Source of the DNA: Candidatus Babelota bacterium
GTDB taxonomy: Bacteria > Babelota > Babeliae > Babelales > Vermiphilaceae
Length of the DNA: 64,000 bases
Assembly (NCBI GenBank): GCA_049325595.1
Contig: JBMOLF010000009.1
Location: forward strand, 27,137-91,136
Direction: 5' to 3'
Below, piece after piece: positions 19,016 through 53,307 of this stretch. The notes below the pieces were generated by a model that saw nothing but the letters and a program-made list of their open reading frames with translations, was not told where the DNA came from and searched no databases. Positions within the stretch are counted from its first letter, which is position 1, and every line of letters begins with the position of its first letter. Both the position numbers and the translations under genes were made by a program.

Positions 19016-19094
19016 GATTAAAAAATTATTTAATATTGTTTATTTGTAAATATTGTCGCTGTTATACTAAAAGTAAAAAGGGGAGAGAGTACAT

Positions 19095-19466: not shown

Positions 19467-19477
19467 AGGATATAGTC

Positions 19478-21390: not shown

Positions 21391-23742
21391 AAAAGGATTT
21401 TCTTCAATTTGATTAACAAGATCTTTTAGCTGTTTATCTTTGTTGTCATCTAATTGAGCAGGCGATTGTTGAGAAGCAATATGAAAGCTTTCTTCTATGC
21501 CTGCTTCATCTAAAAGATCTTTTTCATACGCATCGGCTGCTATTTCAGGGTCAGTTGCCAAGTATTGATCGACCAATGCCTGCGATGGTTCCCTCGTTGG
21601 TTGGAAGAACCAGCGCGTAATCGGATCACGAAGATTGTCAAAGATATAGTTTTCATTGCTGTAGTTTTGAGCAATTTCAACATAATCTTTGGTCATTTCA
21701 CTAATGCCAGCACGCAAACGTGGCTTAATAATAGTTGGCGAAATAAATACCGTTAAAAAGGTCTTAGTTGCAGCACTGCTTCTGCGTTTAAAGAACCAAC
21801 CCAAAATAGGAATTTGGCCGAGTAATGGTGTTTCATTTAAGGCATCCAGCATATCAATTCGGGTAAGTCCGCCCAATGCAAGTACGCACCCATTTGCAAC
21901 ATTAGCATTGGTTATTACTTTACGGGCAAGGCGGTTTCCATCAGATACATTAGCAGACGTAAATTGTACGATGTCCACTTCTATGTGAAGGTTTACCGTA
22001 TTTGCTGAACTTATACGTGGGGTAATACCAACAGTTAATTGTGCTGGAATCCATTTACGTGTTGCATTTATAGCACCACCAGAAGAACCTGCAGCCGCGT
22101 CTTGTAAAAAGCGATCTTCAGTTACCGTGATCATTGCTTGCTTGTTATTAATTGCAATTACGTGTGGGTGACTTAAAACCTTGGTATTATCAAGCAATTT
22201 TTGAATTTGCAAGATTCCCCAGGTTTGTCCGCTATTAGGATCATTAAATGCAACTGCCATTGATCCCGGACTAAAAAAACTTGCCGCACTGCGATTATCC
22301 CCGCCCGGCGTTGTGGGAGGATAGGCATTACGCAATAGATCAGATTGAAGGGTATTTGCCGGAGGCACCGTATTTTCATTAAGTAAAATATTTGGTGTTG
22401 TTTGCGCTGATTGGAAATTCACTAAATGCGGGAATGGTAATTGTGCTGGGTTCCGAATCGAGCTACCAAGTAATCGAACATCATTTAAGGTTAAATCAGC
22501 AATTAAAACTTGCAGCATTACAATGTCTTGCGGGCGATCAACTTGCTCAATAAATTTTTTGATATATTCCCAATCATCAGAACGTGCTGCAATAATTAAG
22601 TTATTATTACCAGCAAATTTACCCTCTGCCGCTTCTTTATTACCAAGATTGAGTGTTTTATCGCTTTTTACAATAACACTTTGTAAAAGGCGTTCAGGAC
22701 CACCTTCTGTCGCTTCGCCACCTCGTGCTTGCTCAGGTCCGCCACCGCGCTGGCCTTTAATAATTGACTCAAGAACAGGAACAAATGAATCAGCATCTAG
22801 GTATTGTAATTGATACACATGCAAAATTGATTTACCCGTACCGATCTCTACATCGATATATTTCATTATAAAATCTTTGAGTCGCTCAACTGCTTGTGCG
22901 CGCCCCCTTAAGATAATTGAATTGGTGCGAGGTACGGCTGCAACGGCAACAGGTTGAAAATAAGTACCTTCTGGTTTTTTACTGCCGGGTAGCTTGTTTG
23001 GCTCAACGGTTACTTGTAACTCTTTGAGAATTTGATCAACAACAAATGAGGCTTGTACAAAATGTAAACGCAATACTTCTAGTGTTTCTTTGTAGGTTGT
23101 TTGATCGAGTGCATTTAAAATTTGAATTGCTGCGCGAATATTACTTCCTCTATCGGTTATTAAAAAACTATTAGTAGCAACATCAACTTTAATATCTGCT
23201 TTGAATAAGGCGCTATCAGATAAAACATTTTTTAATATAGCAAGCAATTCGCTATCGGCTGCATCAGATGCGCGAATGTTTGATAAATAGTGTAAGTATC
23301 GAACTGGTTGATCAGTATCGGGGGGCAATACACCAACATACAGTGGCAATGATTCACGAATAAGATCAGGTGTAGTTTTTATAATTTGATAATTTCCTGC
23401 GTGAGGAACAATGTTGTACCCAGCGATATTAAGAAGTGTTTGAAAAATGTCCCATGCTTCAGACAACGTTAATTTTTCTTCAATATGTAAGGTTACTTTT
23501 TGATTAATAGGTTCTTTTGGCAAGACGACATTAATTCTTTTTTCAGCACTCATTAAGTTGATGATATCAACCAGATCTTCATTATCAAAATAAAAGCTAA
23601 TTTTTCTTTTGCGATTTTTCTTTTGTTTACCATTAGGCTTTGCAGAAATTTTTTCATTCAATGCGCTTGGATGAAAAATGCTTTTTATATCTTCTGCCCA
23701 TACTGTATTGCTTAAGAGAATTATGATAAATAAAAAAATCAT
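21379..23742 (-). CDS. gspD: Type II secretion secretin GspD, copy 2
   Basis: N0 (FYFDNEDL), N-repeats (TNSIILRG), secretin core (VLSHPH...NNKQA, TPRIS, LGGL, PLLGQIPILGWFFK). Confidence 0.9.
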   Translation of the reverse strand: MIFLFIIILLSNTVWAEDIKSIFHPSALNEKISAKPNGKQKKNRKRKISFYFDNEDLVDIINLMSAEKRINVVLPKEPINQKVTLHIEEKLTLSEAWDIFQTLLNIAGYNIVPHAGNYQIIKTTPDLIRESLPLYVGVLPPDTDQPVRYLHYLSNIRASDAADSELLAILKNVLSDSALFKADIKVDVATNSFLITDRGSNIRAAIQILNALDQTTYKETLEVLRLHFVQASFVVDQILKELQVTVEPNKLPGSKKPEGTYFQPVAVAAVPRTNSIILRGRAQAVERLKDFIMKYIDVEIGTGKSILHVYQLQYLDADSFVPVLESIIKGQRGGGPEQARGGEATEGGPERLLQSVIVKSDKTLNLGNKEAAEGKFAGNNNLIIAARSDDWEYIKKFIEQVDRPQDIVMLQVLIADLTLNDVRLLGSSIRNPAQLPFPHLVNFQSAQTTPNILLNENTVPPANTLQSDLLRNAYPPTTPGGDNRSAASFFSPGSMAVAFNDPNSGQTWGILQIQKLLDNTKVLSHPHVIAINNKQAMITVTEDRFLQDAAAGSSGGAINATRKWIPAQLTVGITPRISSANTVNLHIEVDIVQFTSANVSDGNRLARKVITNANVANGCVLALGGLTRIDMLDALNETPLLGQIPILGWFFKRRSSAATKTFLTVFISPTIIKPRLRAGISEMTKDYVEIAQNYSNENYIFDNLRDPITRWFFQPTREPSQALVDQYLATDPEIAADAYEKDLLDEAGIEESFHIASQQSPAQLDDNKDKQLKDLVNQIEENPFSRT

Positions 23743-24302
23743 GTTGCCTCACGAGCCAATGGTGGTAATAATGTGGCAATAGTTAAGGTTGAATTAATTG
23801 TTTGTGGATTTTTTTCTGAGCGGGTAATTTCTAGGTCTTTTATGTAAAGCCTATTGGTTTGTTCGATTGTTGATAAAAATTGTGCAAGTTGTTTCATGTT
23901 AATACCGGCTAAGGTTACTTTCTCAGCTTGCTCACGATAATTATCTTCAACAACAGTAGTAGTAAATTCTCCAGAGGTAAAATTTTGTTCTAAGTTTAGC
24001 TGTTTGGTAATATCTCGAATAAAACCATCTATTTTAAACTCAGGGTCTTGCGCTAAAATTGCATCAACTGCTTTACGTTGTTGCTGCACTTTTTGTGCTT
24101 TTTGTAAAATTTCACGCGTTTGCTCGCGCGCTTCATTAATAATATTAATGTGTCTGGTAGCTGATGCTATGCCCCAAAAATAATTTATTACTAACAATAG
24201 AGCGATAAGAAAAATAATACCCCAATACACAACAATGTATCTGATAAATGATCGTTCATTTAAGTTTTGAATGAATTCTTGTATTTTTTTTATAAGGGTC
24301 AT
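23739..24302 (-). CDS. T2SS GspM/PilO-like protein
   Basis: LNERS, one TM, coiled coil, then ferredoxin-like LAQFLSTIEQ...IKDLEI; coupled to neighbours by ATGA overlaps. Confidence 0.7.
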   Translation of the reverse strand: MTLIKKIQEFIQNLNERSFIRYIVVYWGIIFLIALLLVINYFWGIASATRHINIINEAREQTREILQKAQKVQQQRKAVDAILAQDPEFKIDGFIRDITKQLNLEQNFTSGEFTTTVVEDNYREQAEKVTLAGINMKQLAQFLSTIEQTNRLYIKDLEITRSEKNPQTINSTLTIATLLPPLAREAT

Positions 24303-25927
24303 GATTTCTCCTGACCGTTTTTAAGCAATCGAATAACAATAGTAAACTGTGGCTCTTTGCCTTCTTCTATGAGTTTAAATAATTTCGATTTTTTTAAATC
24401 GCGTTCGAGATTTTTTAATGCCTCATAATCGTTTACTTTGCCTTGCAGAGTAAGAATACCATCTGCAGAAAAAGTAATTTTTTCAAGATCTAGACCTAGA
24501 GCTTCTTTATCAATTTTATCAGTTAGCTCCAAAAGATATTTTAAATATGAAGTCCGAGCAGTGGTTAAAACAGCAAATCGTCTTTCTTCATCATTAACTG
24601 CGCGCTCTGCTTCAGCGATTAAGTCATCAAGGTCGGTTACTTCTTCTGGGATTTTAGGGAAACGCTCTTTAAGCGTTTCAATCACTTCTTCTTGAGAGGT
24701 ATACGCTTCATTATGCAAGCGACGCAATCCAGCAAGACTAAAAATTAATAATGAGCCAATGATTAAGAGTGATAAAACAAGGCTTACTAATAATTGTTTG
24801 GAAAGCTCCCAGGTCGAGGCGGTTGCAAATTCTTCTTTGCGCACATTAAAACGTGCCATACTGGTATTGGGCAATGCTACTGCTAGACTGACCACATTGT
24901 CATCGGGGAAATTATTTTTTGCTGATATTGAAATTCCTGTTTGGGAAATTGCCTGATGGAGGTTAAAAACATTAGTAGCAACCTGCAAGTGTTCAGAAAA
25001 ATAACCAAGCATACCCTTTAAATGTGCTGTTTGACCAAAAAACAACAACGAATCCATCGATTCATGCTCAAGCGCTGTAAATGATTTAATAGTAAAATCT
25101 ATATCTTTTGCAAGAGTTGCAAAGCCAGAATCAATTGCTTGGGCATAAGTATCGGTATGAGCATGCTTTTCTAGGCCGTAGCGTAAGGTATAATCCAGTG
25201 CTTCGGCTATAGAAATATGTAATTGCTCACTTGCTAATTTGGCGACATCATAAATTCCTTTGGGCAGTGTTCGCATTGCTCGTAACTGGCCGCGTTGAAT
25301 ATAGGCCATTCGGGTTCCTTGAATGCCAATTTCAATCAAGGTTACATTTTCATTAAGTGATCGATAATAAGGTAGTGCGGTATACAAACCATAAAGGGCA
25401 AGCAAATCGATGGTAATTTTTTGAGGACTAATTCCTGCTGCTTCAAATAATGCCAGATGATGAGCAATATGTTGCTTTTGTACAGCGACAATAAGTACTT
25501 CAACACTTTTTTCGTCAGGTAATTGTTTGGTAATAACAAAATCGACGACCGCATCTTGAATAGGAAAGGGCAGTAATGGCTCAATTTCATTTTGAACAAC
25601 TCGCGCAATCATATCATAATCAGTAAAGGGAAATTTTAGTTCTTTAAAGATTGTTTGTGCGCTACTCATAGAGCTATAAACCGCTTGATAACGAGCATCA
25701 ATCGAATCGATAATTTTTTTTATTGCAGAGCTAATTCGACTATCGTTATCATTACCATCGGTGACATCTAATTGTTCTTGAAACCATTTTTCAATTATTA
25801 TGTTACGACCTTTTGCTAATATTTGGGTAGCGGTAACATGGGTCTTGCCGATATCAAATCCAATAATGCGCGTTGGAATTACATAGTAATTGCGAATTTC
25901 CTGCGGGATAAATAGATCTTTAATCAT
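24299..25927 (-). CDS. T2SS GspL (PilM-like actin fold + TM + PilN-like domain)
   Basis: IGFDIG, LKFPF, IEPLLPFPIQDAVVDF, LIEIG, TM near residue 385. Confidence 0.8.
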   Translation of the reverse strand: MIKDLFIPQEIRNYYVIPTRIIGFDIGKTHVTATQILAKGRNIIIEKWFQEQLDVTDGNDNDSRISSAIKKIIDSIDARYQAVYSSMSSAQTIFKELKFPFTDYDMIARVVQNEIEPLLPFPIQDAVVDFVITKQLPDEKSVEVLIVAVQKQHIAHHLALFEAAGISPQKITIDLLALYGLYTALPYYRSLNENVTLIEIGIQGTRMAYIQRGQLRAMRTLPKGIYDVAKLASEQLHISIAEALDYTLRYGLEKHAHTDTYAQAIDSGFATLAKDIDFTIKSFTALEHESMDSLLFFGQTAHLKGMLGYFSEHLQVATNVFNLHQAISQTGISISAKNNFPDDNVVSLAVALPNTSMARFNVRKEEFATASTWELSKQLLVSLVLSLLIIGSLLIFSLAGLRRLHNEAYTSQEEVIETLKERFPKIPEEVTDLDDLIAEAERAVNDEERRFAVLTTARTSYLKYLLELTDKIDKEALGLDLEKITFSADGILTLQGKVNDYEALKNLERDLKKSKLFKLIEEGKEPQFTIVIRLLKNGQEKS

Positions 25928-28497
25928 GTATTAATCCCTTTGGTTTGTTCATCATTAAAGAGTTCCACTAATGATTTTTTAGTCGTTGATTGCGCTAATG
26001 ATCGTGTTCTTGGCATGCTAGCAGCAGGAGTTATACTTTTTGGTTGCTCAATGGTTGCATGAGCTAAATCGATCGGTCTTTGGGATCCTATTGGAGGCAA
26101 AGGTGGCTCGGGATTTACCGGACAATTATTATTCTTACGTTGGAAAATGAAATCGTCAGCCGCGCGTTCAGTTCCTTCACGACTTGGTTGGAAGAATAAT
26201 AGATCAACTGGGTCGCGCTTTTGTGAAACATCACGCATGTCATCAGTGGTTAACTCGTACGCATTAATATGTTTTTGAGTAAATTGTTTTATCGAACTTT
26301 GATCAAACGGCTCAATAATGGTTGTTGATATTAAGATCAGAAGATCTTGTTTTCGTTCTGCCTGGCGCTTATTTTTAAATAACCAACCAAGTACCGGAAT
26401 ATCGCCTAAAATTGGCACTTTAGAAACGTTATTGGTAACCGTGTTTTGAATCAAACCACCAAGTGCAATAACTTCTCTATTTGCAGAAATGGTAGTTGTG
26501 TTAATTTTTCGGGTAATACGTGCGGCATTCACCGGATCAGCTGCAGTGATAAAGTTTGAGAGCTCAATACCAAGGTCAAGTACAATCATGCCATCGGAGT
26601 TAATCTGAGGGGTAACATTAATTTCGAGCTTAGCAGTTTCATCACCAAACGTATTTGCTGTAGCATTACTAATAATTTGGCTGGTAATCAAACGACGAAT
26701 TTCACCAAGTGTTACGGTTGCTTTAGTTTTATTAGTTGCAACAACAAAAGGGTTTGAAACTACTTGTGTATTGCTCACGGTTTGCAACAACTGCAATATT
26801 GCCCATACGTTAAGATTATCCCCAAGAGAAATAACGGTATTACCAGCAGGTGCAAAGTTCACCAGACTTAATAAATTTCCTAACAAACGATTGGCTCCAG
26901 GTCCGAACGTGTTTTCTACGATACCTTTGGCGGCACCACCAGCGCGTAAGCCTGATGTTTGAAAGTCAACATTGTATCCTGTTAATCCTTCAACTCCAGG
27001 AACACGCGTTCTTATTTGTGCACCGAGCTCTTTTGTGTTTACTAAATCAACAAGTAAAATGAGTACTTCTACGGCAACCTGACGTTGTGGAGCGTCAAGC
27101 ATTGCAATAATGTCTTTTACTTTCAAAAAGTCTTCATAATCAGCGCGAACAACTAATTGGTTTCCTTCTGGTTCATGTACAAATGTCATAGGTTTGAAAA
27201 ATTTGTCGCCATCACGAACAGCGCCAAATGCAGCTTGCGGCCCTGTTTGCCCCAGAGTTGTAACACTATTCATAATGTTAGCGATAGTGCGCGCATCAGC
27301 ATAGCGCATTTTAATGACATGAATGGGAGAATATGGTTGGGTTAACTCGACGTCAATAAATCGAGTAATAAAATCTTCAATTTTTTTAATACCTTCTGCA
27401 GAGCCTAAAATAATTAATGAATTAGTGCGCGGTTCTGCAAAAATTTTGGTTCCTTCAGGAAAATACTGACCGGTTGGTGTTCTGCGCCCAGGGAATAATC
27501 GAGCCGTTACACTTTGACGATCTTCTTCAGGATTAAGTTGCTTATAAAGTTTTGCAACATCCATGGCATCTGCGCGACGAAGTTTTAATACCGACATTGC
27601 TTGTGGAGCATTAGCTTTATCTAATTCTTTGATGATCTGCATTAAGCTTTTAATATTATAAGCTTTATCAGTTATCACGAGTGCTCTTAGTTCTTGTAAA
27701 ATCACTACAGCAGATGATGGACTACGTAATCCCGGCTTGTTTTCGTCACCAATTAATGATCGAAGCGTATCAGTTGAAATATTGTCATAAAAATATACAA
27801 AGCGAACCATTTCATCGCTGTCTGGCAATGTTTCAGCAGGTACACCAATAAAGGCCGGAAGCGGCATTCGCCGTGCATTTTCAACCGCCGTAATGCGCAT
27901 AACACGCGGTGTTGGCTCCGGAACAATTGCAAGGCCTGCAATAGACAAAAAGGTATTAAAAAGATTCCACGCAGCTTTTCGCGTTAAAGGCTTTTCTGTT
28001 TTAAAAGAAATTTTATTTCCTTTAATTGGACGTGACAATGCTCCTTGTGCGCCAGGAGTTACCGTATCATCTGTAATAAAGGTAACGCCGTAAATATCTT
28101 CTATTTGTTTTACCAGTTGTTCAAGGTCGGCATTTTCAAAATAAAATTCAATAAGTTCTTCTTGCTCAGGCAATTGAATTTGAGGTTCTTCTATGGGTAA
28201 TTCTTTTTGGTCTAATAATTTGTGTGCTTGTTCGGTAGGGCTTTCTTTATAGCCTTTATCGACTAATGGCGGTTGCTCTGGTACCGGAGCAGTAGGTGCA
28301 AAAACAGGATTTTCAGCTTTTACTTCAGGTATTGCTGGTTCACTTGATAATACCGGTTTTGCATGCTCAACAGGCTTTGCTTTTTTTGTGCACAATTCTT
28401 CTTGCTGTGGTATACAATTTTGTTTTTTAGCGCATGATGGAGTAATGCCAATGAGTGTGAGTAAGAGCCACGCTAAAGGAATACGATATAAATTCAT
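25924..28497 (-). CDS. gspD: Type II secretion secretin GspD, copy 1 (Pro-rich linker, possible lipoprotein)
   Basis: FYFENADL, EPRTNSLII, LDAPQRQVAVEV, VTPQIN, KVPILGDIPVLGWLFK; N-terminal ITPSC. Confidence 0.92.
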   Translation of the reverse strand: MNLYRIPLAWLLLTLIGITPSCAKKQNCIPQQEELCTKKAKPVEHAKPVLSSEPAIPEVKAENPVFAPTAPVPEQPPLVDKGYKESPTEQAHKLLDQKELPIEEPQIQLPEQEELIEFYFENADLEQLVKQIEDIYGVTFITDDTVTPGAQGALSRPIKGNKISFKTEKPLTRKAAWNLFNTFLSIAGLAIVPEPTPRVMRITAVENARRMPLPAFIGVPAETLPDSDEMVRFVYFYDNISTDTLRSLIGDENKPGLRSPSSAVVILQELRALVITDKAYNIKSLMQIIKELDKANAPQAMSVLKLRRADAMDVAKLYKQLNPEEDRQSVTARLFPGRRTPTGQYFPEGTKIFAEPRTNSLIILGSAEGIKKIEDFITRFIDVELTQPYSPIHVIKMRYADARTIANIMNSVTTLGQTGPQAAFGAVRDGDKFFKPMTFVHEPEGNQLVVRADYEDFLKVKDIIAMLDAPQRQVAVEVLILLVDLVNTKELGAQIRTRVPGVEGLTGYNVDFQTSGLRAGGAAKGIVENTFGPGANRLLGNLLSLVNFAPAGNTVISLGDNLNVWAILQLLQTVSNTQVVSNPFVVATNKTKATVTLGEIRRLITSQIISNATANTFGDETAKLEINVTPQINSDGMIVLDLGIELSNFITAADPVNAARITRKINTTTISANREVIALGGLIQNTVTNNVSKVPILGDIPVLGWLFKNKRQAERKQDLLILISTTIIEPFDQSSIKQFTQKHINAYELTTDDMRDVSQKRDPVDLLFFQPSREGTERAADDFIFQRKNNNCPVNPEPPLPPIGSQRPIDLAHATIEQPKSITPAASMPRTRSLAQSTTKKSLVELFNDEQTKGINT

Positions 28498-28502
28498 ATT
28501 TT

Positions 28503-29609
28503 TTACTCGGTGTTAGATAACATATTTTGTATTGGCCGCTTCCCTTTTTCCAACATATTTTTTCTTTCTCTGGCCCTCAATTCATCAATTGTTGGTGCAA
28601 ATGTTTCACGTTCTTCAAGTCGTTTTAATTGCTCTCTTGTTATTTGATCTGCCGTTCTTCTTTGGGTGTCTCGTGCTGGCGGCTTGGCAATAGTATCACG
28701 CAATTCGTAGTAAATGGTGGTTTCTCTGCCATTTCTTATTACTTTAACTGGAATTGTTCGATTTGTCTTTAATGTAGTAAGTTCTTGGTAAATAGTAAAA
28801 CGATTTGCCGTAGTTGTTGCCGGAATATCGTTAATAGCAATCACCATATCGCCACGCTCTAAGCCTATTGCAGCAGCAAGTGACGGAGGGTTTATCGTGC
28901 CAATACGACAGCCAATGCTAGCCCCTTGACTATACACACCAGTTAAATCAAGCATATCGATAAATTGTGCAAGGCTATGAACTCTGCCAGCAAATTCATG
29001 TACATTTACCATAAATTTATTTGATGAAATAGGTTTGATAACAGATGACCAATCTTCAATAAACGTATAAGCAGGATCTGATTTTGCATCACGTTCTTTA
29101 AGGTACAATACTTCTTGCTGGCCATTAGAACGTAAGAATATAACTTTATTACTCATAATCCGAATAAGTTGTGCATCTTCAATACGATCACCAATTTGAT
29201 AACTGGATTCTTGTCCAGTTGCATTGTCGGCAATAATCGCTCTGTTTCTTGTGTCATCATGAACAATCACAATTATGCCACGCAACGTTATAGCCAGTGG
29301 CTCTTGAAATTGCGGCTTGGGCTCTTCTGGTTTGTAGATAGGATGCGGCGCGGGTGGCTCGGGTGCAACTGCCGTGAATGTTGGCACGCGCTCAATAGGC
29401 GCTTCAGGAATTACTGTATTGAATAAATCATTTTGGTATATTTTACTCAAATTAATTTGCGCAGATGTTGTAGTAATTGGCTTTACATACTCGACAGGTA
29501 CAATTTCTTCTCGCTCGGGAATAGATATAGACGAAAAGAGCATAAATCCGAGTACAGAGATAAAAAGGAAAAGGAGTGCGCTGTTTAAAAGCCAAAATGG
29601 TTGTCTCAT
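28503..29609 (-). CDS. gspC: T2SS GspC with PDZ domain
   Basis: N-terminal TM, HR domain (LRGII...RAIIAD...YQIGDRI), PDZ (GLERGDMVIAIND). Confidence 0.85.
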   Translation of the reverse strand: MRQPFWLLNSALLFLFISVLGFMLFSSISIPEREEIVPVEYVKPITTTSAQINLSKIYQNDLFNTVIPEAPIERVPTFTAVAPEPPAPHPIYKPEEPKPQFQEPLAITLRGIIVIVHDDTRNRAIIADNATGQESSYQIGDRIEDAQLIRIMSNKVIFLRSNGQQEVLYLKERDAKSDPAYTFIEDWSSVIKPISSNKFMVNVHEFAGRVHSLAQFIDMLDLTGVYSQGASIGCRIGTINPPSLAAAIGLERGDMVIAINDIPATTTANRFTIYQELTTLKTNRTIPVKVIRNGRETTIYYELRDTIAKPPARDTQRRTADQITREQLKRLEERETFAPTIDELRARERKNMLEKGKRPIQNMLSNTE

Positions 29610-36445: not shown

Positions 36446-36754
36446 TTATTCTTGGCTTGTTCCTGGAACAGCTGGTGCTGATTGGGTAGTTAGTGGGCGT
36501 ACTGAGCGAGTATACGTTTCAAGTTGGGAAGATTTCATAACGGCCAATAGCAATGACCCAGCCATAAAAATTGCCCCAAGAATCCAGGTAATTTTTTGGA
36601 AAATATCTTGTCCGCCAGAGCCACCAAAAAGCATTTGAGCGCCACCGCCAAGGTTGCCAAGGCCCATATTGCCTTTTCCTTGTTGGATAAGAATAAGCAG
36701 TACGAGTAAAAATGAGTTGAATATAAAGAAAGTTACTAACATGCCATATAACAC
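36446..36754 (-). CDS. secG: Preprotein translocase SecG
   Basis: LILIQQGKG...LFGGSG...KITWILG; downstream of tpiA. Confidence 0.93.
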   Translation of the reverse strand: MLYGMLVTFFIFNSFLLVLLILIQQGKGNMGLGNLGGGAQMLFGGSGGQDIFQKITWILGAIFMAGSLLLAVMKSSQLETYTRSVRPLTTQSAPAVPGTSQE

Positions 36755-45081: not shown

Positions 45082-45804
45082 ATGAAGCAGAAAATAATCG
45101 CATTTTTGTTAGGTTGTATTGTGTATCAATTGCATGCAACATCCTTATCCGAGCTCGCACACGAAACTGACAAAGGTCCAAGCGGTCACAATTATACCGC
45201 TGTTTATGAAAAATATTTCACTGATTTGCGCCATAAGTCTATTAAATTTTTAGAAATAGGATTTTTAATAGGGGGTTCTGCGCGCATGTGGGATAAATAT
45301 TTTACGGATGCTGAATTATATTTTATGGATATATCGGAAGAATTATTTGAAAAATATAGTTATGGTCTATCTAAACGTTGCCATTTCTACGTTGTAGACC
45401 AAAGCAATACCGCTGAATTGAGTCAATTTATTAAAACAGTTGGTGGCGATTTTGATATTATCATTGATGATGGCGGACATCATATGCACCAGCAAATTAC
45501 GAGCTTTAAAACACTGTTTCCTTTTCTTAAAAGTGGCGGTCTTTATGTAATTGAAGATTTGCATACCTCATATTGGCAACGCTTTGGTGGTGCAGGAGAA
45601 ATTGGCGCACCAAATGCTGATGGTCAAACAACTATTCGTTTTTTGCAATCGCTTGTTGATGAAGTAGGATATATAGGTGCCTACACTGGATATGCTGATG
45701 CAGGTAAATGTCCGGCTGAGGTATATGAAAAATTAACCTATTACCAAAAACATATACAATCAATTCATTTTTATGGAAGTATCTGTTTTATTCTCAAGCG
45801 TTAA
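45082..45804 (+). CDS. Class I SAM-dependent sugar O-methyltransferase (MycE/Rmt-like) with signal peptide
   Basis: TDK...HNY...FLEIGF...MWDKYF...FDIIIDDGGH...GLYVIEDLHTSYW. Confidence 0.82.
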   Translation: MKQKIIAFLLGCIVYQLHATSLSELAHETDKGPSGHNYTAVYEKYFTDLRHKSIKFLEIGFLIGGSARMWDKYFTDAELYFMDISEELFEKYSYGLSKRCHFYVVDQSNTAELSQFIKTVGGDFDIIIDDGGHHMHQQITSFKTLFPFLKSGGLYVIEDLHTSYWQRFGGAGEIGAPNADGQTTIRFLQSLVDEVGYIGAYTGYADAGKCPAEVYEKLTYYQKHIQSIHFYGSICFILKR

Positions 45805-46736
45805 TTTTTGCTGACTTGTAATTGATTGATAATTTTTAGTAAGCATTCAATGGATGCATAGTCACTCATATTTTTTAATACCCAATCTCGCGGTGAAAAA
45901 ATAAATTTATTATTTTGATATGCTTGTATCAGCTTTTCAAGTTGAGAAGTCGTCTTCCAATCTCTACCTTGCATATCAGTTAAAAAGGGGCAGGATGATA
46001 CAGGATTATAATGTTTACCGGCATAAAAAAATTCACCAGGATTCCATACGAAAGTTGGTACATTCATTGCCCAAGCTTCTGCTAGGGCAATGCCTTGCGA
46101 TTCTGAGCGACTAACAAAAATTGCAAATTCGCATTCATTAAGTTCGGATTTAAATTGTTCTTGAGAGTAGGCGCCATAAGTAATGCGTGTTGTCATGTAT
46201 CCTTTAGCTTGCACCATGTCTTCAATTGATTTGCAAAAAGATTCTGATTCTGTTTTCCAGTAAATAAGCGCCTTTTTTTGTTTAGGTGCTAAATTAGGTT
46301 GCCAATAATGAATGTCTACTCCTGAAGGCCATATGCTAATATGATCTGCAAGACTTGGTTCATCTTCAATATAAGCAATTTTTGTCCATTCTGAAGGTAC
46401 TAAATAGTGATCGAGTTCAGGTGAGGCTAATAAATGGTTGTAATCGCAAGATCGAATCATTAAATTTGGGCCCGCTAACAATAATTTAATATGTCCTAAC
46501 TTTTTTAAATGGACGCCATATCTAAATTTATCTAATCCATCAATTACCAATACTACTGGATAGACATCCTCTGCTCGAACAGGATTTATATTGTAAGTTA
46601 TTTTATGCTGTTGTAATCCATTTTGTAGGCTGCGGAACACTCCTTTATGAGGATCTTGTGTTAAAATAGTTAGCTCAACACAAAATCCTATATTAGTGCC
46701 TAACAAAATAAGGAAAAATAGTACTATAAAAATCAT
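45801..46736 (-). CDS. GT-B (GT4-like) glycosyltransferase with signal peptide
   Basis: VPSEW, SGVDIHYW, SRSESQGIALAEAWAMNVP (E-x7-E). Confidence 0.8.
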   Translation of the reverse strand: MIFIVLFFLILLGTNIGFCVELTILTQDPHKGVFRSLQNGLQQHKITYNINPVRAEDVYPVVLVIDGLDKFRYGVHLKKLGHIKLLLAGPNLMIRSCDYNHLLASPELDHYLVPSEWTKIAYIEDEPSLADHISIWPSGVDIHYWQPNLAPKQKKALIYWKTESESFCKSIEDMVQAKGYMTTRITYGAYSQEQFKSELNECEFAIFVSRSESQGIALAEAWAMNVPTFVWNPGEFFYAGKHYNPVSSCPFLTDMQGRDWKTTSQLEKLIQAYQNNKFIFSPRDWVLKNMSDYASIECLLKIINQLQVSKN

Positions 46737-47671
46737 TCTTGTTGGTTTCCTTTAATTGATTGTGTCATTCGTTTAAATACGTTTACTATTGATTCTTGTA
46801 TAGAGGGAATATGTGGAAATTCTTTCAGTAATTTAGAGCAATCCAAACAATTGTTGGAGCGTTTTGCCTTTAAAATTTGTGCTTGCTCATTGAGTGTAAA
46901 GTTTTCATAGGTAAAAGATGGATCAATGTATTTTTTATAAAGATCTAAGATTTGATTGTGCGAGATTACACCTGGATTAGTAAAATTATAATTACCTGTC
47001 AATTTGCGTTCAATCATTTGAGGGATTAGCGGTAATAAATCAGTAAGAACACTCATAGAGTTGGGTATATTGATTACCTTTTGATAACGGGTAATTTTAG
47101 TAATAAAATTTTTAGGATGCAAATCATCTGAGATTGGCATTCTAATACGGAGATTTAAAACATTTGGATAATTAAGCAATAGCCCATCTACCATAGCTTT
47201 GGTTTTTGAATAAAATGATCCACTAAAATTAGGAGTATCTTCTTCGGTATATCCTTTTAGATTTTCTAAATTATGATCTGCATCATATTCATAGATACAT
47301 CCAGTACCAAGATTAGTAAGGTGAATGTCTAATGTAGCGCAAATATCTGCCAAATTGAGTGTGCCAATAACATTAGTACGCAATGTTTCTTGTTTATGAT
47401 CTTCACACCAATCAACATTGGGTGTACCGGTTAGTCCCGCAGCACTTACAATTACATCAGGATTTATTTTTTTAATTTCGTTAATGATATCTGTTCTGTT
47501 TTCTAATCGAGATTCAGCGCAATGAACCTGATACCCGCTATTACTAAAAATAGGGATTAATTGTTGGCCAATCCAACCGGTTTTTCCACCGAACAATAAA
47601 ACTGTTTTAGCAAACATAGTATGAGACAAAATAATGGTGCTTATAAAAAGTGTTAATACTATTTTTTTCAT
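46733..47671 (-). CDS. NDP-4-keto-6-deoxyglucose 3,5-epimerase/4-reductase (UER1/NRS-ER type) with signal peptide
   Basis: GKTGWIG, GLTGTPNVDWCEDHKQET, GTGCIYEYD, SFYSKTK, LRIRMPIS, NFTNPGVISHN, RSNN. Confidence 0.9.
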   Translation of the reverse strand: MKKIVLTLFISTIILSHTMFAKTVLLFGGKTGWIGQQLIPIFSNSGYQVHCAESRLENRTDIINEIKKINPDVIVSAAGLTGTPNVDWCEDHKQETLRTNVIGTLNLADICATLDIHLTNLGTGCIYEYDADHNLENLKGYTEEDTPNFSGSFYSKTKAMVDGLLLNYPNVLNLRIRMPISDDLHPKNFITKITRYQKVINIPNSMSVLTDLLPLIPQMIERKLTGNYNFTNPGVISHNQILDLYKKYIDPSFTYENFTLNEQAQILKAKRSNNCLDCSKLLKEFPHIPSIQESIVNVFKRMTQSIKGNQQE

Positions 47672-47685
47672 GATGAAATCCATCG

Positions 47686-48585
47686 TTAATTTGCTAATAT
47701 ATCGTTAAAATAATTGTTAAAAATTGACATTTTTTGTCCATCTTGCTCATAAGATGAACCGCGATAATGTACAAAATTAAGATCTAAATAATATTCAAAG
47801 GTATCAGGACGGTTTAATAAGAATGCAATTTCTATATCAGTAAAACCATAATGCTCATAAAAACTTCTTTTTAGTTCATCTGAGATATGAACATCTGCTG
47901 GCTTGTTAATATGTCTGTCGCCAAGGAATAATTGATGACTAAAGGTCATATGAACAGGTATGATTTTAAGTTCTGGGTGTTCTTGCATATAATAATAAGA
48001 CCATGCACCCGTATCGCCCAATATGCCATTTATGGTTCCCGCATTAAAATTTAACGATTTTTTATCTGGTATTTTATTCATAGCAATCATACAAAAAAGT
48101 GGACTGCAATATTGAATTTTATTGCGTGGGCGATTTATGCGCCCGCTAATGTGTTTGTCAGCCATGTAATCTTCAATTGAAAAAGGTCGCACAAGTAAAC
48201 AATCTGAATCAATAATGAAAACCACCCCATCATGATCATAACCAATTACATCTAAGGAGTATTGCACGCAATTGCTATGACGGTAATTATTTTGTTGAAG
48301 GTTGTCACCTGGTAATCTCGGACAGTAAGGACGGGTATGTATTTCTTGTGGTATTTCAATGCAGCGAATATGATAACGATTACACATATCATAGATGTTT
48401 TGACGCATATGATCACTAGTCGCGTCATTAAAAACTACATATTCATAATCATCTTTTAAAAATTTTTTAAAAGTTTTGTGCTGAAGCTCAATAAAATCAG
48501 GGCGATTATAATTATGAGTAATTATTAAGACTTTTGCACTTAAAGCTGTTGATATAAACAACAATAGAGTTAATAAACGCTTCAT
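47686..48585 (-). CDS. Putative GT-A glycosyltransferase with signal peptide
   Basis: YNRPDFIELQ, YVVFND, IIDSD (DxD), GDTG, HYRGSS. Confidence 0.6.
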   Translation of the reverse strand: MKRLLTLLLFISTALSAKVLIITHNYNRPDFIELQHKTFKKFLKDDYEYVVFNDATSDHMRQNIYDMCNRYHIRCIEIPQEIHTRPYCPRLPGDNLQQNNYRHSNCVQYSLDVIGYDHDGVVFIIDSDCLLVRPFSIEDYMADKHISGRINRPRNKIQYCSPLFCMIAMNKIPDKKSLNFNAGTINGILGDTGAWSYYYMQEHPELKIIPVHMTFSHQLFLGDRHINKPADVHISDELKRSFYEHYGFTDIEIAFLLNRPDTFEYYLDLNFVHYRGSSYEQDGQKMSIFNNYFNDILAN

Positions 48586-48597
48586 AAATATCCTATT

Positions 48598-49704
48598 TTA
48601 ATTACGTTTTTGTAAAAATGTAAGCCCATTACAGAATGGGTAATGCACCATATGCCAGGTGTTCCCATCTTTTATAAAAGTGGTATTAACATAATAATGT
48701 TCATTAAATTCAAGAGCAAAATATTCTTTTAGAGCTTGCGTTACTCCTCTGGTATTGCCCGGAGCCGAATCGGTTGTTCCATTGATTCTCATAAAGCTAT
48801 GATTTGGCAATGGGGTAACATTTGAGTCATGAAAGGCGATAATTCCTTGAGTATTTAAAAGAGGCACAAACATTTTTATTTCTGCAAGTGTATGCTCATA
48901 TAAATGAGATGTGTCGATAAAGATTAAATCAATTGGCGTGTTTTTATAATCACTGTTTTGATAATAATTAACAAAGTTTAAGTCGTCCATATGAATAAAA
49001 AGGGTATTTTTTAAGGCATTATAGGCTGCCGCATATGAGGGTTCAATATCAAGGCCAATCATTGTGGCTGAACATAATTGCAATGCTTGATAAAATGGTT
49101 TTGTTGATTGTCCACCACGGACACCTGCTTCAACGATAAGATTAGGGTTTAAAAGTAGCGTATAGGTAAATAATGCTGGAATGTGACTTGATATGTCTGT
49201 ATCTTTTTGATTACTGTAAATAAGCATTTGTTTGTAAGAGTCAAGTGCGCGAGTTGGTAGAAAGCACGGTAAAATTACTGGATCAGCATATTCGTAATTG
49301 GCAGGAAAGTAATAATAATTGTAAAGATGACGATAATGATTAATATTACTACTGTTATAATCCCATACTGCTATGGCATTCGATAGTTTTTCATTATAAT
49401 CTGATGTCAAATATGCCCCAGAAAGATCTAATGTTTGGTAAATAATGTAATGTTGTGGAAAATCTTTTTTATTAAGTTGATGTGCATCAAAAATGATATA
49501 AAGAGCATCATTATTATCAAACATTGATGTTTGCTCATAATTAATATTGAATTTTTTTAAAATATTCAATAGCGGTTGGGTATAATTGTCATGATAACCA
49601 TGAATAAAAACTTTAGAATTGCATTTAAGTAAATGATCAGCATAAATAGAGTGGCTAATGATAGTTGCTAATATGACCAGTGCATAAAAAATATTTTTCT
49701 TCAT
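48598..49704 (-). CDS. Fusion of a GT-like N-domain and a class I methyltransferase (Methyltransf_24-like), with signal peptide
   Basis: YIIYQ/AVWDYN N-domain; VEAGVRGGQST, IFIDTSHLYEHT, IAFHD. Confidence 0.72.
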   Translation of the reverse strand: MKKNIFYALVILATIISHSIYADHLLKCNSKVFIHGYHDNYTQPLLNILKKFNINYEQTSMFDNNDALYIIFDAHQLNKKDFPQHYIIYQTLDLSGAYLTSDYNEKLSNAIAVWDYNSSNINHYRHLYNYYYFPANYEYADPVILPCFLPTRALDSYKQMLIYSNQKDTDISSHIPALFTYTLLLNPNLIVEAGVRGGQSTKPFYQALQLCSATMIGLDIEPSYAAAYNALKNTLFIHMDDLNFVNYYQNSDYKNTPIDLIFIDTSHLYEHTLAEIKMFVPLLNTQGIIAFHDSNVTPLPNHSFMRINGTTDSAPGNTRGVTQALKEYFALEFNEHYYVNTTFIKDGNTWHMVHYPFCNGLTFLQKRN

Positions 49705-49733
49705 ACCTTTTTCCTTTTTTTATATATGCCTAC

Positions 49734-49817
49734 AAAGTAGTAAAACTAGGTCCTTTGTCAAGTTACAGAATAGATGGGAAAAGTCACCTTGACTATTCTA
49801 CGCAATTTTAATAGAAC
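49734..49817. promoter_or_regulatory. Back-to-back putative sigma70 promoters of the glycan cluster
   Basis: Minus strand TTGACA (49756-49761)-16-TACTTT; plus strand TTGACT at 49789-49794. Confidence 0.4.
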
Positions 49818-49844
49818 CTTTTAAGTCATAAAAAAGGAGACACT

Positions 49845-50948
49845 ATGATTTATTTATCATCTAAAAAAATTTCTATTTTATTTTCTTGGATAATTTTATT
49901 TTCTTATTTTATTGAAGCAAAAAATGTCTTTGTAACAGGTGGTGCAGGATTTATTGGTAGTAATTTTATTAATTATATGTTCAAAAAGTATCCAGATTAT
50001 CATTTTACCGTGCTTGATAAACTTACTTATGCCGGAAATCTAAATAATATTAATGAACAAGTGCGCAATTCTAATAGATTTACTTTTGTAAAAGGATGCA
50101 TCACTGATGTTGAATTAGTTGACCAACTTATGAGCGATGCAGATTTTGTTGTGCATTTTGCTGCAGAATCGCATGTAGCGCGTAGCATAGTTGATGATTA
50201 TGTTTTTTTTGAAACTGATGTATTAGGAACTCGTTCATTAATGGCAGCATTGGTAAAACATAACAAGCGTGTTGAGCGGTTTATTCATATTTCAACCTCT
50301 GAAGTATTTGGTACTGCCGAAGAATTTCATATGACTGAAGACCATCCAATTAACCCACGCACACCCTATGCAGCTGCTAAAGCAGGGGCTGATCGCTTAG
50401 TATATGCTTATTGGTGTACCTATGATATTCCTGCAGTTATTGTTAGGCCCTTTAATAATTATGGACCAAACCAACATGTTGAAAAATTAATCCCTCGTCT
50501 TATTGCACAGGCAATTGAAGGAATACCTCTTACAATTCATGGAAATGGGGAACAAAAAAGAGATTGGGTTCATACGTATGATATTGCGCGCGCGTTAGAC
50601 ATGATTTTGCATGCCGACAATTTCTCAAAAATTAAAAATCAGGTTATTAATTTGGGCAGTGGACGTGCTACGTCGGTTAATGAAATTGCCAATGTAATAT
50701 TAACTTACTTTAATTTGCCAGATGATTTTAAAAATTACACTAAAGATAGACCTGGACAGGTGATGTTACATATTTCTGATACAAAAAAAGCATTAGAGCT
50801 GTTGGGATGGGAACCCAAAATTAACTTAGAAGAAGGCTTAGAGAATGTTATTGAATGGTACAGGCATAATACCCAACATTGGACTGAAAATTTAAAAACA
50901 TGCCGAATTCCAATCAAACATGAAGATAATGTTATTGAACATTATTAA
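49845..50948 (+). CDS. rmlB: dTDP/UDP-glucose 4,6-dehydratase (RmlB family) with signal peptide
   Basis: VTGGAGFIG, LDKLTYAGN, HFAAESHV, PYAAAKAG, NNYGPNQ, RDWVH, DRPG; strong AAGGAG RBS. Confidence 0.88.
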   Translation: MIYLSSKKISILFSWIILFSYFIEAKNVFVTGGAGFIGSNFINYMFKKYPDYHFTVLDKLTYAGNLNNINEQVRNSNRFTFVKGCITDVELVDQLMSDADFVVHFAAESHVARSIVDDYVFFETDVLGTRSLMAALVKHNKRVERFIHISTSEVFGTAEEFHMTEDHPINPRTPYAAAKAGADRLVYAYWCTYDIPAVIVRPFNNYGPNQHVEKLIPRLIAQAIEGIPLTIHGNGEQKRDWVHTYDIARALDMILHADNFSKIKNQVINLGSGRATSVNEIANVILTYFNLPDDFKNYTKDRPGQVMLHISDTKKALELLGWEPKINLEEGLENVIEWYRHNTQHWTENLKTCRIPIKHEDNVIEHY

Positions 50949-50963
50949 TTTTTGGAGAAATAA

Positions 50964-51635
50964 TTGAAGTTTATCAATGTCCCATTCCTCGTTTATTTAC
51001 TATTTTGTATGTTGCAAGCAAAAGCCCAAAATCTTGTTATTTTGTGTACCGCATCGTTAATCCCCGCACAATTTGAGCAGCGCAAAAAAGAATACATCGA
51101 AGCTTTGAAGCAATTGCCACAGCTAGCCGTACCTTTTTATGTTGTTGAAAATCATTTGGTAGGAGGACCTTCATTCTTAGATGATTATTGTAGCAATGTA
51201 TTTTATTTTGCATGCAATAATATCAATTTACGTAACAAAGGTGTAAATGAAGCAATTTCTATGCTGAAGGCGCTCGAGCTACTTAATTTAAATGACGAAA
51301 CTATGGTAATTAAATTAACGGGGCGTTATCAATTAAGACATTTTGCCTTATTTAAATTAATTAAAGAAAATCCTGATTGTGATGCATTTGTAAAATATGA
51401 TTCTTATGGCCAAGTTTATACAGGGTGTTATGCAATGCGTTATCATTGCATGAAAAAAATGGTACAAGAAATGGATTTGCATCGCATGGAAGTTGAAATG
51501 ATATCAATAGAAAAAGTAGTGGCTGATTTTATACATAATAATATTAACGCTAAAAAAATATATATCCTACAAGATCTGGGTATTATGGCTCATTTTTTTG
51601 GTGACGGTTCTCAAATTACTTCTATGGAGCTTTGA
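50964..51635 (+). CDS. Glycan-locus protein, putative glycosyltransferase, with signal peptide
   Basis: RKKEY, NKGVNE, IKLTGRY motifs; TTG start after GGAG. Confidence 0.55.
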   Translation: MKFINVPFLVYLLFCMLQAKAQNLVILCTASLIPAQFEQRKKEYIEALKQLPQLAVPFYVVENHLVGGPSFLDDYCSNVFYFACNNINLRNKGVNEAISMLKALELLNLNDETMVIKLTGRYQLRHFALFKLIKENPDCDAFVKYDSYGQVYTGCYAMRYHCMKKMVQEMDLHRMEVEMISIEKVVADFIHNNINAKKIYILQDLGIMAHFFGDGSQITSMEL

Positions 51636-51636
51636 T

Positions 51637-52482
51637 ATGAAGGGTCTTAAGACTATTATTTTTTTAAATATTATATTTTTAAGTAATACAACCTACGGAT
51701 TAATTTTTCATGGGACACAGGAAACCTTGCAAGAAATCAAAAATATTATTGAAAATAAACAATCAGGTTGTTATTTACGTTTTGGTGATGGAGATTTAAA
51801 CCTTGCCTATGGAATGAATGAGTTGTGCCAATTGCAAAATGCACATCTACAACATGAAATGCAAGAAGCTTTTAGCCTTAACCATAAAACTATAATAAAA
51901 ACCTTGCCATTACATTGTAAAGAATTTGGTGGCTTAGAAAAGCATATGTTCCCTGGTAATCATGAAGTTGGTTATGAACAGGCATGCCAATTTGTAGCCC
52001 GAGCACAACCTCTTTGGGGGCAAGAGATAACAGATATTTATTCTCCAGTTGCACTTGCATATACAGCAACATATAATGTTGATATTTGTTTGGATTTTTT
52101 AAAATTTCTTAAGTCACAAAATTGTTTGTTATTAATAGGCAATGAATGTATTCCAAACACGATTATTAAACTTTTATTTGGTAACCAAACAATTTTTATT
52201 CCAACACCAGCTGTTAATGCCTATTCATCAATAAATGAGATCGAAGAACAGGCTCAAAAAATTTTAAGAGAGCAAGATGATACCTATAAAATTGTAGTGT
52301 TATCAATGGGATGTTCTGGCAGAATTTTAACTAAGCGTTTATGGAAAAGTCGTAAAAACATATTTATTTTTGATTTTGGGAGTCTCATGGATGCGCTTTG
52401 TGGTTGGAATACTCGGGCGTGGATAGAGCTTACACAATTTGATAAGAATCAAATTTTAATTCCTCTTAATAATCATCACTAA
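51637..52482 (+). CDS. GT-D fold (DUF1792-like) glycosyltransferase with signal peptide
   Basis: YLRFGDGD, NAYS, LSMG, FDFGS; start moved to ATG 51637 after GGAG. Confidence 0.72.
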   Translation: MKGLKTIIFLNIIFLSNTTYGLIFHGTQETLQEIKNIIENKQSGCYLRFGDGDLNLAYGMNELCQLQNAHLQHEMQEAFSLNHKTIIKTLPLHCKEFGGLEKHMFPGNHEVGYEQACQFVARAQPLWGQEITDIYSPVALAYTATYNVDICLDFLKFLKSQNCLLLIGNECIPNTIIKLLFGNQTIFIPTPAVNAYSSINEIEEQAQKILREQDDTYKIVVLSMGCSGRILTKRLWKSRKNIFIFDFGSLMDALCGWNTRAWIELTQFDKNQILIPLNNHH

Positions 52483-52500
52483 TTTTTTAAAGGATAAGTA

Positions 52501-53307
52501 ATGAAAAAGCTTATTTTTATGTCTTTGTTATTTTCATATCAATTAAAGCCCTGTGACTTTAATGAATTACTTAAATGCAACTTGCCTAAAATAAATGTTG
52601 CTCAATTATGCAATGTGGAAAAGGAGTTACAATTATATGAAGCAGCATTAAAGGACGAATCAAATTACTCTGGTGTTCCAACACTTGACGGTTGGATAGA
52701 TCAAGGATATGAGTATCCCCATATTAATCCAGTACATCAAAGACTTTTAGACGCGGTAAAACCACTAACTGTAGAATCTGTGTGTGAATTAGGAGCAGGA
52801 TGTGGCAAAATCTCAAAATATATTTTTGCCCAAAAACCACATATTAAATTGACTTGTGTTGAGCACGATTCAACTCATCTTGCACAGATTAATGAAAATT
52901 TTAAAACAAGAACTCATATTATTGCGCCAGATATTTCTGTAGAGGCAAATATTATAAAAGGTTCTTTGCATAATTTACCTATGATTGCCCCTGAAAGTTT
53001 CGACTTAGTATTTACGTGTACGGTAATGATGCATTTGCCGTTTATAGTTGCGGTAAAAGCAGCTGAAGAAATTGTCCGTATTAGTAAAAGATATATTCTT
53101 CATGTAGAAAATAAAAATCAAGGTGGAGATTGGTACAGTATGACTATTGTAAAACCAGCAACAATGTCTCAAGCTAATTTGGTGGGCATTGATTATCCAC
53201 GGCTTTATGAAAATCTTGGGGTTAAAACGCTGATCTATTATGAATATCAAGATCCAGCAAGTCCAGCTACAGGCGTGGTATATCTTGGTGAAAAAATTTC
53301 TCAATAA
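52501..53307 (+). CDS. Class I SAM-dependent methyltransferase with signal-like N-terminus
   Basis: VCELGAGCG, FDLVFTCTVMMH, EIVRISKRYILHVE. Confidence 0.8.
   Translation: MKKLIFMSLLFSYQLKPCDFNELLKCNLPKINVAQLCNVEKELQLYEAALKDESNYSGVPTLDGWIDQGYEYPHINPVHQRLLDAVKPLTVESVCELGAGCGKISKYIFAQKPHIKLTCVEHDSTHLAQINENFKTRTHIIAPDISVEANIIKGSLHNLPMIAPESFDLVFTCTVMMHLPFIVAVKAAEEIVRISKRYILHVENKNQGGDWYSMTIVKPATMSQANLVGIDYPRLYENLGVKTLIYYEYQDPASPATGVVYLGEKISQ

Follow-up and report, generated by a model that had tools for sequence, protein, structure and literature searches.

A signal-tagged gene cluster for a predicted rhamnose-containing, methylated glycan in a Babelota genome suggests sugar coats built beyond the bacterial cytoplasm

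The stretch of DNA analysed here (referred to as the window) comprises 64,000 nucleotides of the genome of a Candidatus Babelota bacterium (assembly GCA_049325595.1, contig JBMOLF010000009.1, positions 27,137 to 91,136 of the forward strand). At positions 45082-53307 it contains nine open reading frames (ORFs) coding for an RmlB-type dehydratase, a plant-type bifunctional nucleotide-rhamnose synthase/epimerase-reductase (NRS/ER), three methyltransferases, three glycosyltransferases (GTs) resembling the GT-D or GT-A fold and one weakly GT1-like protein. All nine proteins begin with an N-terminus resembling a signal peptide of the general secretory (Sec) pathway, and proteins of this kind are called tagged below. 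This tagged rhamnose-and-methyl sugar pathway suggests that the bacterium builds sugar coats beyond its own cytoplasm, from building blocks of its host. The genome is a metagenome-assembled genome (MAG) of 1.29 Mb in 24 contigs, with about 35% G+C and an estimated completeness of 95%; the named relatives of its proteins are Vermiphilus pyriformis, a Babeliaceae MAG and records labelled 'Candidatus Dependentiae'. The nine genes could represent an accessory glycan toolkit of a protist parasite of the Dependentiae (Babeliales type).

The N-termini were judged with a crude hydrophobicity rule of our own (basic n-region, hydrophobic core, small residues at -3 and -1). In all nine proteins, a basic n-region is followed by a hydrophobic core located directly before the catalytic fold, with small residues preceding the start of the mature protein. 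The medians (net charge +2, core of 13 residues, uncharged stretch of 18 residues) are indistinguishable from the values of exported proteins of this genome such as BamA, Skp, ZnuA and TolC. By the same rule, the N-termini have the make-up of Sec signals for signal peptidase I (positive n-region, hydrophobic core some 7-15 residues long, -3 and -1 occupied by small residues). The enzymes thus look like Sec substrates with signal peptides of the cleavable type, translocation and cleavage both being predictions from sequence. This is in agreement with the initial annotation, which had seen such an N-terminus ahead of each catalytic fold and had considered that of the last methyltransferase the weakest. 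Export through the twin-arginine translocation (Tat) system was rejected, since the genome has no match to TatC; none of the nine N-termini carries an RR motif either. Export would therefore be of unfolded protein via Sec, for which the signal peptidase LepB and SecY, SecD, SecF and YidC are encoded elsewhere in the genome and SecG within the window.

N-termini of this kind could also arise as artefacts, if gene calls were over-extended into AT-rich DNA encoding hydrophobic residues by chance. A G+C content of 35% favours codons for Phe, Ile, Leu and Lys, the NRS/ER gene has an in-frame ATG at codon 19, and two ORFs (those for NRS/ER and the GT-D protein) were indeed over-extended by the longest-ORF rule; the starts of both were corrected, and all nine ORFs lie at the positions first given. 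However, at internal control positions the rule fires in 3-4% of cases, against 577 of 1054 (55%) at the true N-termini of ORFs without later transmembrane segments, and on the strength of this difference the nine signal-like N-termini are taken as real. Shine-Dalgarno-like motifs are found 9-16 nucleotides upstream of eight of the nine starts, while the ninth gene, NRS/ER, starts 14 nucleotides past the stop of the preceding one. Two genes, coding for the dehydratase and the 368-residue methyltransferase, have no other start codon ahead of the catalytic fold. For the dehydratase, the strong ribosome-binding site and the lack of a start just before the Rossmann motif, both pointed out earlier, correspond to an AAGGAG 9-11 nucleotides upstream and to an earliest alternative start at codon 45. 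More than 100 orthologues of NRS/ER with 53-81% identity keep the open, signal-like extension and share no conserved internal Met, and housekeeping proteins encoded by the same DNA (in the window NusA, IF-2, AspRS, ParA, MutL, TIM and MgsA) have no such N-termini. Based on the internal control, the Shine-Dalgarno motifs, the lack of alternative starts and the conservation in relatives, an artefact was rejected; we consider it extremely improbable.

The same type of N-terminus is present in most of the closest relatives. From the 120 best database matches to NRS/ER, 6 long forms were set aside; in 106 of the 114 judged, the Rossmann strand is preceded by a signal-like core (median extension 23 residues, median core 12), followed in 104 of these 106 by a small-residue (-3,-1) site. 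The other 8 seem to be gene calls that were cut short or cases close to the threshold. Related loci were divided by identity to the query into 15 high-identity loci, whose submitter labels include 'Chlamydiae' (one locus) and 'Pseudomonadota' (three loci), and 7 loci at 37-46% identity from MAGs belonging to the candidate phyla radiation (CPR) and to gammaproteobacteria. In the former, 49 of the 53 homologues of eight of the nine cluster proteins pass a strict test, the misses being three N-termini that are hydrophobic by eye and one distant paralogue; no homologue of the last methyltransferase was found in the related loci examined. In the latter, only one of seven passes (a spurious ORF of 1066 residues) and the other six begin at the Rossmann fold; homologues from outside the Dependentiae lack such N-termini. 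Among 151 genomes sampled from the phylum, the NRS/ER gene occurs in 29 (24 of 96 genera), all from the same order as the present genome. A motif search located it in 25 of these 29 loci, where 21 N-termini pass the strict test and four are hydrophobic by eye. The N-terminus is conserved in kind and not in sequence, and its retention across an order argues that it is functional. Inheritance of the N-termini as anchors from eukaryotic Golgi enzymes was considered as well. For NRS/ER, the dehydratase, Gmd and Fcl it was rejected, as the solved homologues have no N-terminal extension; such an origin may still apply to the GT6 and GT10 proteins found elsewhere in the genome.

Regarding the enzyme families, NRS/ER aligns over query residues 26-298 with the Arabidopsis thaliana enzyme (PDB 4qqr, 352.7 bits) and from query residue 25 with Mimivirus L780 (PDB 7jid, 229 bits). 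Full-length similarity and the conservation of GGKTGWIG and FYSKTKAM in the alignment place it in the NRS/ER (UER1) family, and the profile search also returned it as an RmlD/epimerase-family protein. The dehydratase matches PF16363 with 246 bits (cut-off 27) and, as its best PDB match, 6bi4 with 251 bits, while its score for TIGR01181 (328.1 bits) is below the equivalog cut-off of 365.1. The GT-D protein belongs to the DUF1792 group according to PF08759 (34.3 bits against 27) and PF22882 (30.6 against 27). The GT1-like protein scores 21.4 bits for PF00534, under the cut-off of 26.4. Two GT-A-like proteins lack a named family, and their nearest neighbours in Atlas and BFVD are mostly viral and aligned only from residue 18-23 or so; for the smaller one, the Atlas matches are to viral clusters, with alignments starting at residue 20-23. 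Alignment of the larger one (299 residues) with 10 homologues revealed an invariant NDA, a DxD motif and an invariant Cys pair, and the AlphaFold model built from this alignment (pLDDT 86) matched only generic GT-A folds, with a TM-score of about 0.4. Its top fold match, the human collagen galactosyltransferase COLGALT1, was discarded because the TM-score of about 0.41 is too weak for use. The two cysteines, C68 and C75, are invariant across all 11 members of the family; they may form a disulphide, which would suit an extracytoplasmic location. The N-terminus of the first methyltransferase contains L-L-G-C, a lipobox-like motif, and this protein might consequently be a lipoprotein instead of a soluble exported enzyme.

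Table 1. Genes of the tagged cluster and context features in the window.
Feature	Positions	Strand	Remarks
SAM (S-adenosylmethionine) methyltransferase (Methyltransf_24), signal-like N-terminus MKQKIIAFLLGCIVYQLHA	45082..45804	+	signal-like homologues in 5/5 related loci
Weak GT1-like protein (GT-B?), hydrophobic N-terminus MIFIVLFFLILLGTNIGFC	45801..46736	-	4/4 homologues signal-like
Eukaryote-type bifunctional NRS/ER (UDP-4-keto-6-deoxyglucose 3,5-epimerase/4-reductase), signal-like N-terminus	46733..47671	-	start corrected to ATG 47671
GT-A-fold glycosyltransferase of unnamed family, DxD motif, invariant Cys pair, signal-like N-terminus	47686..48585	-	8/10 homologues pass strict test
Methyltransferase with rhamnosyl O-methyltransferase/CmcI-like domain, 368 residues, signal-like N-terminus	48598..49704	-	no alternative start in first 45 codons
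NDP-glucose (nucleoside diphosphate glucose) 4,6-dehydratase, RmlB type, signal-like N-terminus	49845..50948	+	10/11 homologues signal-like
Small GT-A-like protein without Pfam family, signal-like N-terminus	50964..51635	+	5/6 homologues signal-like
GT-D-fold glycosyltransferase, signal-like N-terminus	51637..52482	+	start corrected to ATG 51637; TIGR03728 match; 2/2 homologues signal-like
Class I SAM methyltransferase, weakest signal-like N-terminus of the nine	52501..53307	+	no homologue found in the related loci
SecG	36446..36754	-	context gene
Type II secretion system-like genes: two secretins, GspC-, GspM- and PilM/GspL-like	21379..29609	-	context genes

The claim of a fully tagged pathway stands for the nine genes, but not as a peculiarity of this cluster. 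Crude ORF calling of the genome gave 1283 ORFs of at least 80 residues, of which 577 (about 45%) have a hydrophobic N-terminus and no later transmembrane segment. This proportion is approximate, because some cytoplasmic proteins are falsely flagged by the rule (likely cases are a Mur ligase, CTP synthase and lactate/malate dehydrogenase, with domains beginning at residues 4-7), and since about half of the proteome has such N-termini, nine out of nine is less exceptional than it first looked. The cluster is one instance of a genome-wide trait already published for Chromulinavorax destructans, in which signal peptides were reported for 44% of coding sequences (PMC6561590). Thirteen further sugar enzymes are tagged: a GT2+GT10 fusion, four GT2, one GT6, one GT10, two FkbM methyltransferases, UDP-glucose dehydrogenase (UGDH), Gmd, a Gmd-like protein and GDP-fucose synthase (Fcl). 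Tagging of sugar enzymes is nevertheless selective, as five of six GT2 proteins have a signal-like N-terminus while one strong GT1, GalU and GlmU have none. The sole untagged GT2 (G000:C10:50583-51356) adjoins an ORF for a membrane protein and might be a GtrB/DPM1-type polyprenyl-phosphate glycosyltransferase, which would represent a separate, lipid-linked sugar route. When the 344 tagged ORFs that lie outside the window and have 200 residues or more were all scanned against Pfam, they proved to include true envelope proteins as well as many ankyrin, leucine-rich repeat (LRR) and WD40 proteins. Signal-like N-termini were also seen on a DOT1-like histone methyltransferase (G000:C10:55442-56131) and on a protein with a histone deacetylase domain (L071:16437-17468, C15), which are probably host-chromatin effectors leaving via Sec.

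The genes expected for a conventional pathway were searched for in the whole genome. No RmlC was found, and GalU and GlmU were the only nucleotidyltransferases recovered, which leaves the genome without RmlA and ManC. A priming transferase (Bac_transf), a ligase/polymerase (Wzy_C) and a flippase (Polysacc_synt) are equally missing from the genome profile searches, and the GT4 family is represented by a single, MraY-like gene. The 55 ORFs with at least four transmembrane segments include SecY, SecD, SecF, YidC, Lgt, DsbD, MurJ, FtsW/RodA, BacA, two TLC and three EamA carriers; no GT-C, Wzx or ABC-2 exporter was identified among them. A surface polysaccharide pathway dependent on Wzx/Wzy or an ABC exporter is thus not recognisable in this 95%-complete genome, and a lipid-linked pathway was rejected as its assembly genes were not found. 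RmlA, a priming transferase, a flippase and a polymerase, first remarked upon as missing from the cluster, were not found in the rest of the genome either. A second, signal-less rml set was likewise not found, all five PF16363 matches in the genome having signal-like N-termini. GalU on the other hand is present (329 bits, over its cut-off) and has no signal, so that feeding by host UDP-glucose, as proposed in the initial annotation, is not strictly required.

In the explanation that we favour, while placing it somewhat below an even chance, the enzymes are exported via Sec and glycosylate outside the cytoplasm with nucleotide sugars from the host, acting in the periplasm or at the surface with the bacterium's own exported proteins as acceptors. 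The dehydratase and the plant-type NRS/ER would convert NDP-glucose to NDP-L-rhamnose, from which the glycosyltransferases and O-methyltransferases would build a methylated, rhamnose-containing glycan. Each enzyme would be synthesised as a precursor carrying a Sec signal peptide of the cleavable type, be exported unfolded and fold outside the cytoplasm; as there is no Tat system, folding and cofactor loading must both follow export. The proposed site of work is the periplasm or cell surface of a bacterium living inside a host cell, and the substrates would be nucleotide sugars, NAD(P)H and SAM of host origin reaching that space. The reactions of UGDH, Fcl, NRS/ER and the methyltransferases use up NAD+, NADPH or SAM, and the exported forms of these enzymes would for this reason work only in places that offer host metabolites. 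Indirect support for such dependence on host substrates comes from the tagged Gmd and Fcl, given that no ManC was found and they thus have no bacterial source of GDP-mannose. Without lipid-carrier machinery, the simplest outcome would be direct glycosylation of the bacterium's own exported proteins, with no carrier, flippase or ligase involved.

The likeliest acceptors, though this part is more speculative, would be 17 threonine-rich collagen-like proteins; the initial annotation had put forward no specific target. All 17 are tagged, several have a BclA C-terminal domain, and Thr occupies the Y position in 313 of the 532 G-X-Y triplets of their repeats. Fourteen of them, several with BclA_C, lie in an island (G000:C1:146-56760) where they are interleaved with about 18 tagged GT2, GT6, GT10, FkbM and unnamed proteins; the three others are on contig C23. 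In Bacillus anthracis, the glycan of BclA is composed of a 2-O-methylated sugar and three rhamnoses (PMC6222408).

Several observations weigh against glycosylation outside the cytoplasm. The crude rule also flags some cytoplasmic N-termini of Rossmann and Mur type. To our knowledge, the characterised relatives of these enzymes are all cytoplasmic and depend on NAD(P)H, SAM and NDP-sugars, which would have to reach the periplasm. No nucleotide-sugar transporter was recognised among the 55 multi-spanning ORFs, where the three EamA and two TLC proteins are the only carriers. The cytoplasmic GalU would fit a cytoplasmic pathway. As regards the acceptors, the collagen genes are on other contigs, with none within 8 kb of the cluster in 22 related loci, and the GT-A protein resembles collagen galactosyltransferase only weakly in structure (TM-score about 0.4). 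Finally, the absences discussed above are provisional, since the genome is a MAG of 24 contigs and 95% completeness.

A cytoplasmic GalU also underlies the proposal that the N-termini are uncleaved tethers, holding at the cytoplasmic face of the inner membrane a pathway that runs on GalU-made UDP-glucose and whose product exits by an unrecognised route. It would bring the enzymes into line with their cytoplasmic, cofactor-dependent homologues, and it is compatible with a mature domain that directly follows the hydrophobic stretch with no linker and with a rule that does not separate anchors from signals. The N-termini themselves argue otherwise: the positive charge is on the N-side (median +2), cores of about 12 residues are too short for a typical membrane span and are followed by the (-3,-1) site in nearly all NRS/ER homologues, and the whole resembles the N-termini of BamA, Skp, ZnuA and TolC. 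A tether moreover leaves the product without a priming transferase, flippase, ligase or ABC-2 exporter and the tagged Gmd without a ManC to feed it, and does not account for the invariant Cys pair of the GT-A family. We consider it improbable.

The other proposal, which builds on the initial annotation, takes the enzymes one step further than the periplasm, with transfer after Sec by the type II secretion system (T2SS) or by outer-membrane vesicles to the host cytosol or vacuole, where NDP-rhamnose would be made from host UDP-glucose and host targets, or the bacterial surface from outside, would be glycosylated. Every cofactor needed is present in the host cytosol, and many tagged proteins (ankyrin, LRR, WD40, DOT1-like, histone deacetylase) can act only on host structures. 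Parts of a T2SS are encoded: in the window, secretins of 787 and 857 residues flank the GspM- and PilM/GspL-like genes, and GspE/F-type genes are located elsewhere in the genome. Outer-membrane vesicles and an intracytoplasmic replication body have been described for C. destructans (PMC6561590), and Chlamydia secretes glycogen enzymes that are fed by host UDP-glucose (PMC4829429). However, the present enzymes are indistinguishable from periplasmic residents, T2SS substrates having no sequence signature, and no host-like acceptor is indicated. A pathway of several steps would be inefficient when diluted in the host cytosol, and the Thr-rich collagen-like proteins that the bacterium itself exports are a simpler acceptor. 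Transfer to the host is accordingly seen as unlikely, though less so than a tether, and the periplasm or cell surface is regarded as no less likely a site of action than the host cytosol reached via the T2SS.

The closest experimental precedent for enzymes working outside the cytoplasm on host substrates is the glycogen metabolism of Chlamydia trachomatis, whose secreted enzymes (GlgA, GlgB and others) use host UDP-glucose (PMC4829429). In both cases an obligate intracellular bacterium exports sugar-polymer enzymes that are normally cytoplasmic, to use a host nucleotide sugar outside its own cytoplasm, which in our case is a prediction. The chlamydial enzymes lack signal peptides, are released by type 3 secretion and deposit glycogen in a vacuole, as described in that work; here, a Sec-type tag is predicted on NDP-sugar-converting enzymes of the short-chain dehydrogenase/reductase family, Leloir glycosyltransferases and methyltransferases. 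C. destructans belongs to the same phylum and has the same proportion of tagged proteins (44% of coding sequences, against 577 of 1283 ORFs here), including ankyrin proteins and hydrolases in both, while the words glycosyl, rhamnose and lipopolysaccharide do not occur in the main text of its description, which does not discuss tagged nucleotide-sugar pathways (PMC6561590).

The plant and giant-virus pathway to UDP-L-rhamnose is alike in its two-enzyme route without separate RmlC and RmlD, and 273 residues of NRS/ER align with 4qqr. The plant and viral enzymes act in the cytoplasm and begin at the Rossmann fold (chain residues 16 of 4qqr and 7 of 7jid correspond to query residues 26 and 25), and it is to this fold that the Dependentiae clade adds a signal of 23 residues in the median. 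In the Golgi, exported proteins are modified outside the cytosol by Leloir glycosyltransferases, for which nucleotide sugars are imported; these enzymes are membrane proteins of type II, dedicated nucleotide-sugar transporters are present and NDP-sugar synthesis is cytosolic. The GT6 and GT10 families are common to the Golgi and the present genome, in which, unlike in the Golgi, the NDP-sugar-converting enzymes are tagged as well and a nucleotide-sugar transporter was not recognised among the multi-spanning ORFs. BclA is glycosylated in the cytoplasm of the mother cell by enzymes without signals, and its rml genes are RmlABCD. The BclA of the B. anthracis exosporium shares with the putative acceptors its collagen-like G-X-T repeats and C-terminal domain, and its glycan contains rhamnose and an O-methylated sugar, according to the published account (PMC6222408). 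In the present genome, by comparison, both putative acceptors and enzymes are tagged, an enzyme of NRS/ER type would be the source of rhamnose, and the collagen link itself is inferred.

Other features of the window were noted in passing. An adenylate kinase (61530-62177, minus strand; PF00406 from residue 22) has the signal-like sequence MIIILLLLSFCFSLYGF directly before its P-loop and appears to be another nucleotide-dependent enzyme tagged for export. An FAD (flavin adenine dinucleotide) oxidase of the D-arabinono-1,4-lactone oxidase type (40993-42237, plus strand; PF04030 and PF01565) has a signal-like N-terminus, as do three tandem paralogous ORFs of 129, 123 and 128 residues (18626-19864, plus strand), which belong to no Pfam family and share Y-x-x-R-V-x-N-x-T at the mature start. 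A short ORF of 86 residues (63137-63397, plus strand) contains H-C-H-Y-H-I-V-W, possibly the motif of IS200/IS605-type transposases.

In bacterial glycobiology, nucleotide-sugar enzymes and Leloir transferases are assumed to work in the cytoplasm, and glycans to be taken across the membrane by lipid carriers. In the literature outside subscription journals, no account of nucleotide-sugar pathways with signal tags was found for Dependentiae; our analysis contributes counts across the genome and the phylum, the apparent absence of ManC and of carrier machinery, and collagen-like proteins as candidate acceptors. Across a whole order of parasites these enzymes bear export tags, and the carrier machinery is seemingly missing. 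As a tentative extension, in which we have somewhat less confidence than in extracytoplasmic glycosylation as such, Babeliales-type Dependentiae might perform a Golgi-like envelope glycosylation free of carrier lipids, including conversions to rhamnose, fucose and glucuronate, fed with nucleotide sugars, NAD(P)H and SAM by the host, and decorating the exported, collagen-like fibres of the coat around the infectious cell. If confirmed, export of these enzymes would represent a different logic, namely glycosylation in the envelope or the host cytosol at the metabolic expense of the host, and would extend the single known case, that of Chlamydia glycogen. It would also account for a part of the unusually large secretome predicted for Dependentiae, and provide testable candidates for the cell coat of these bacteria and for their uptake by protists.

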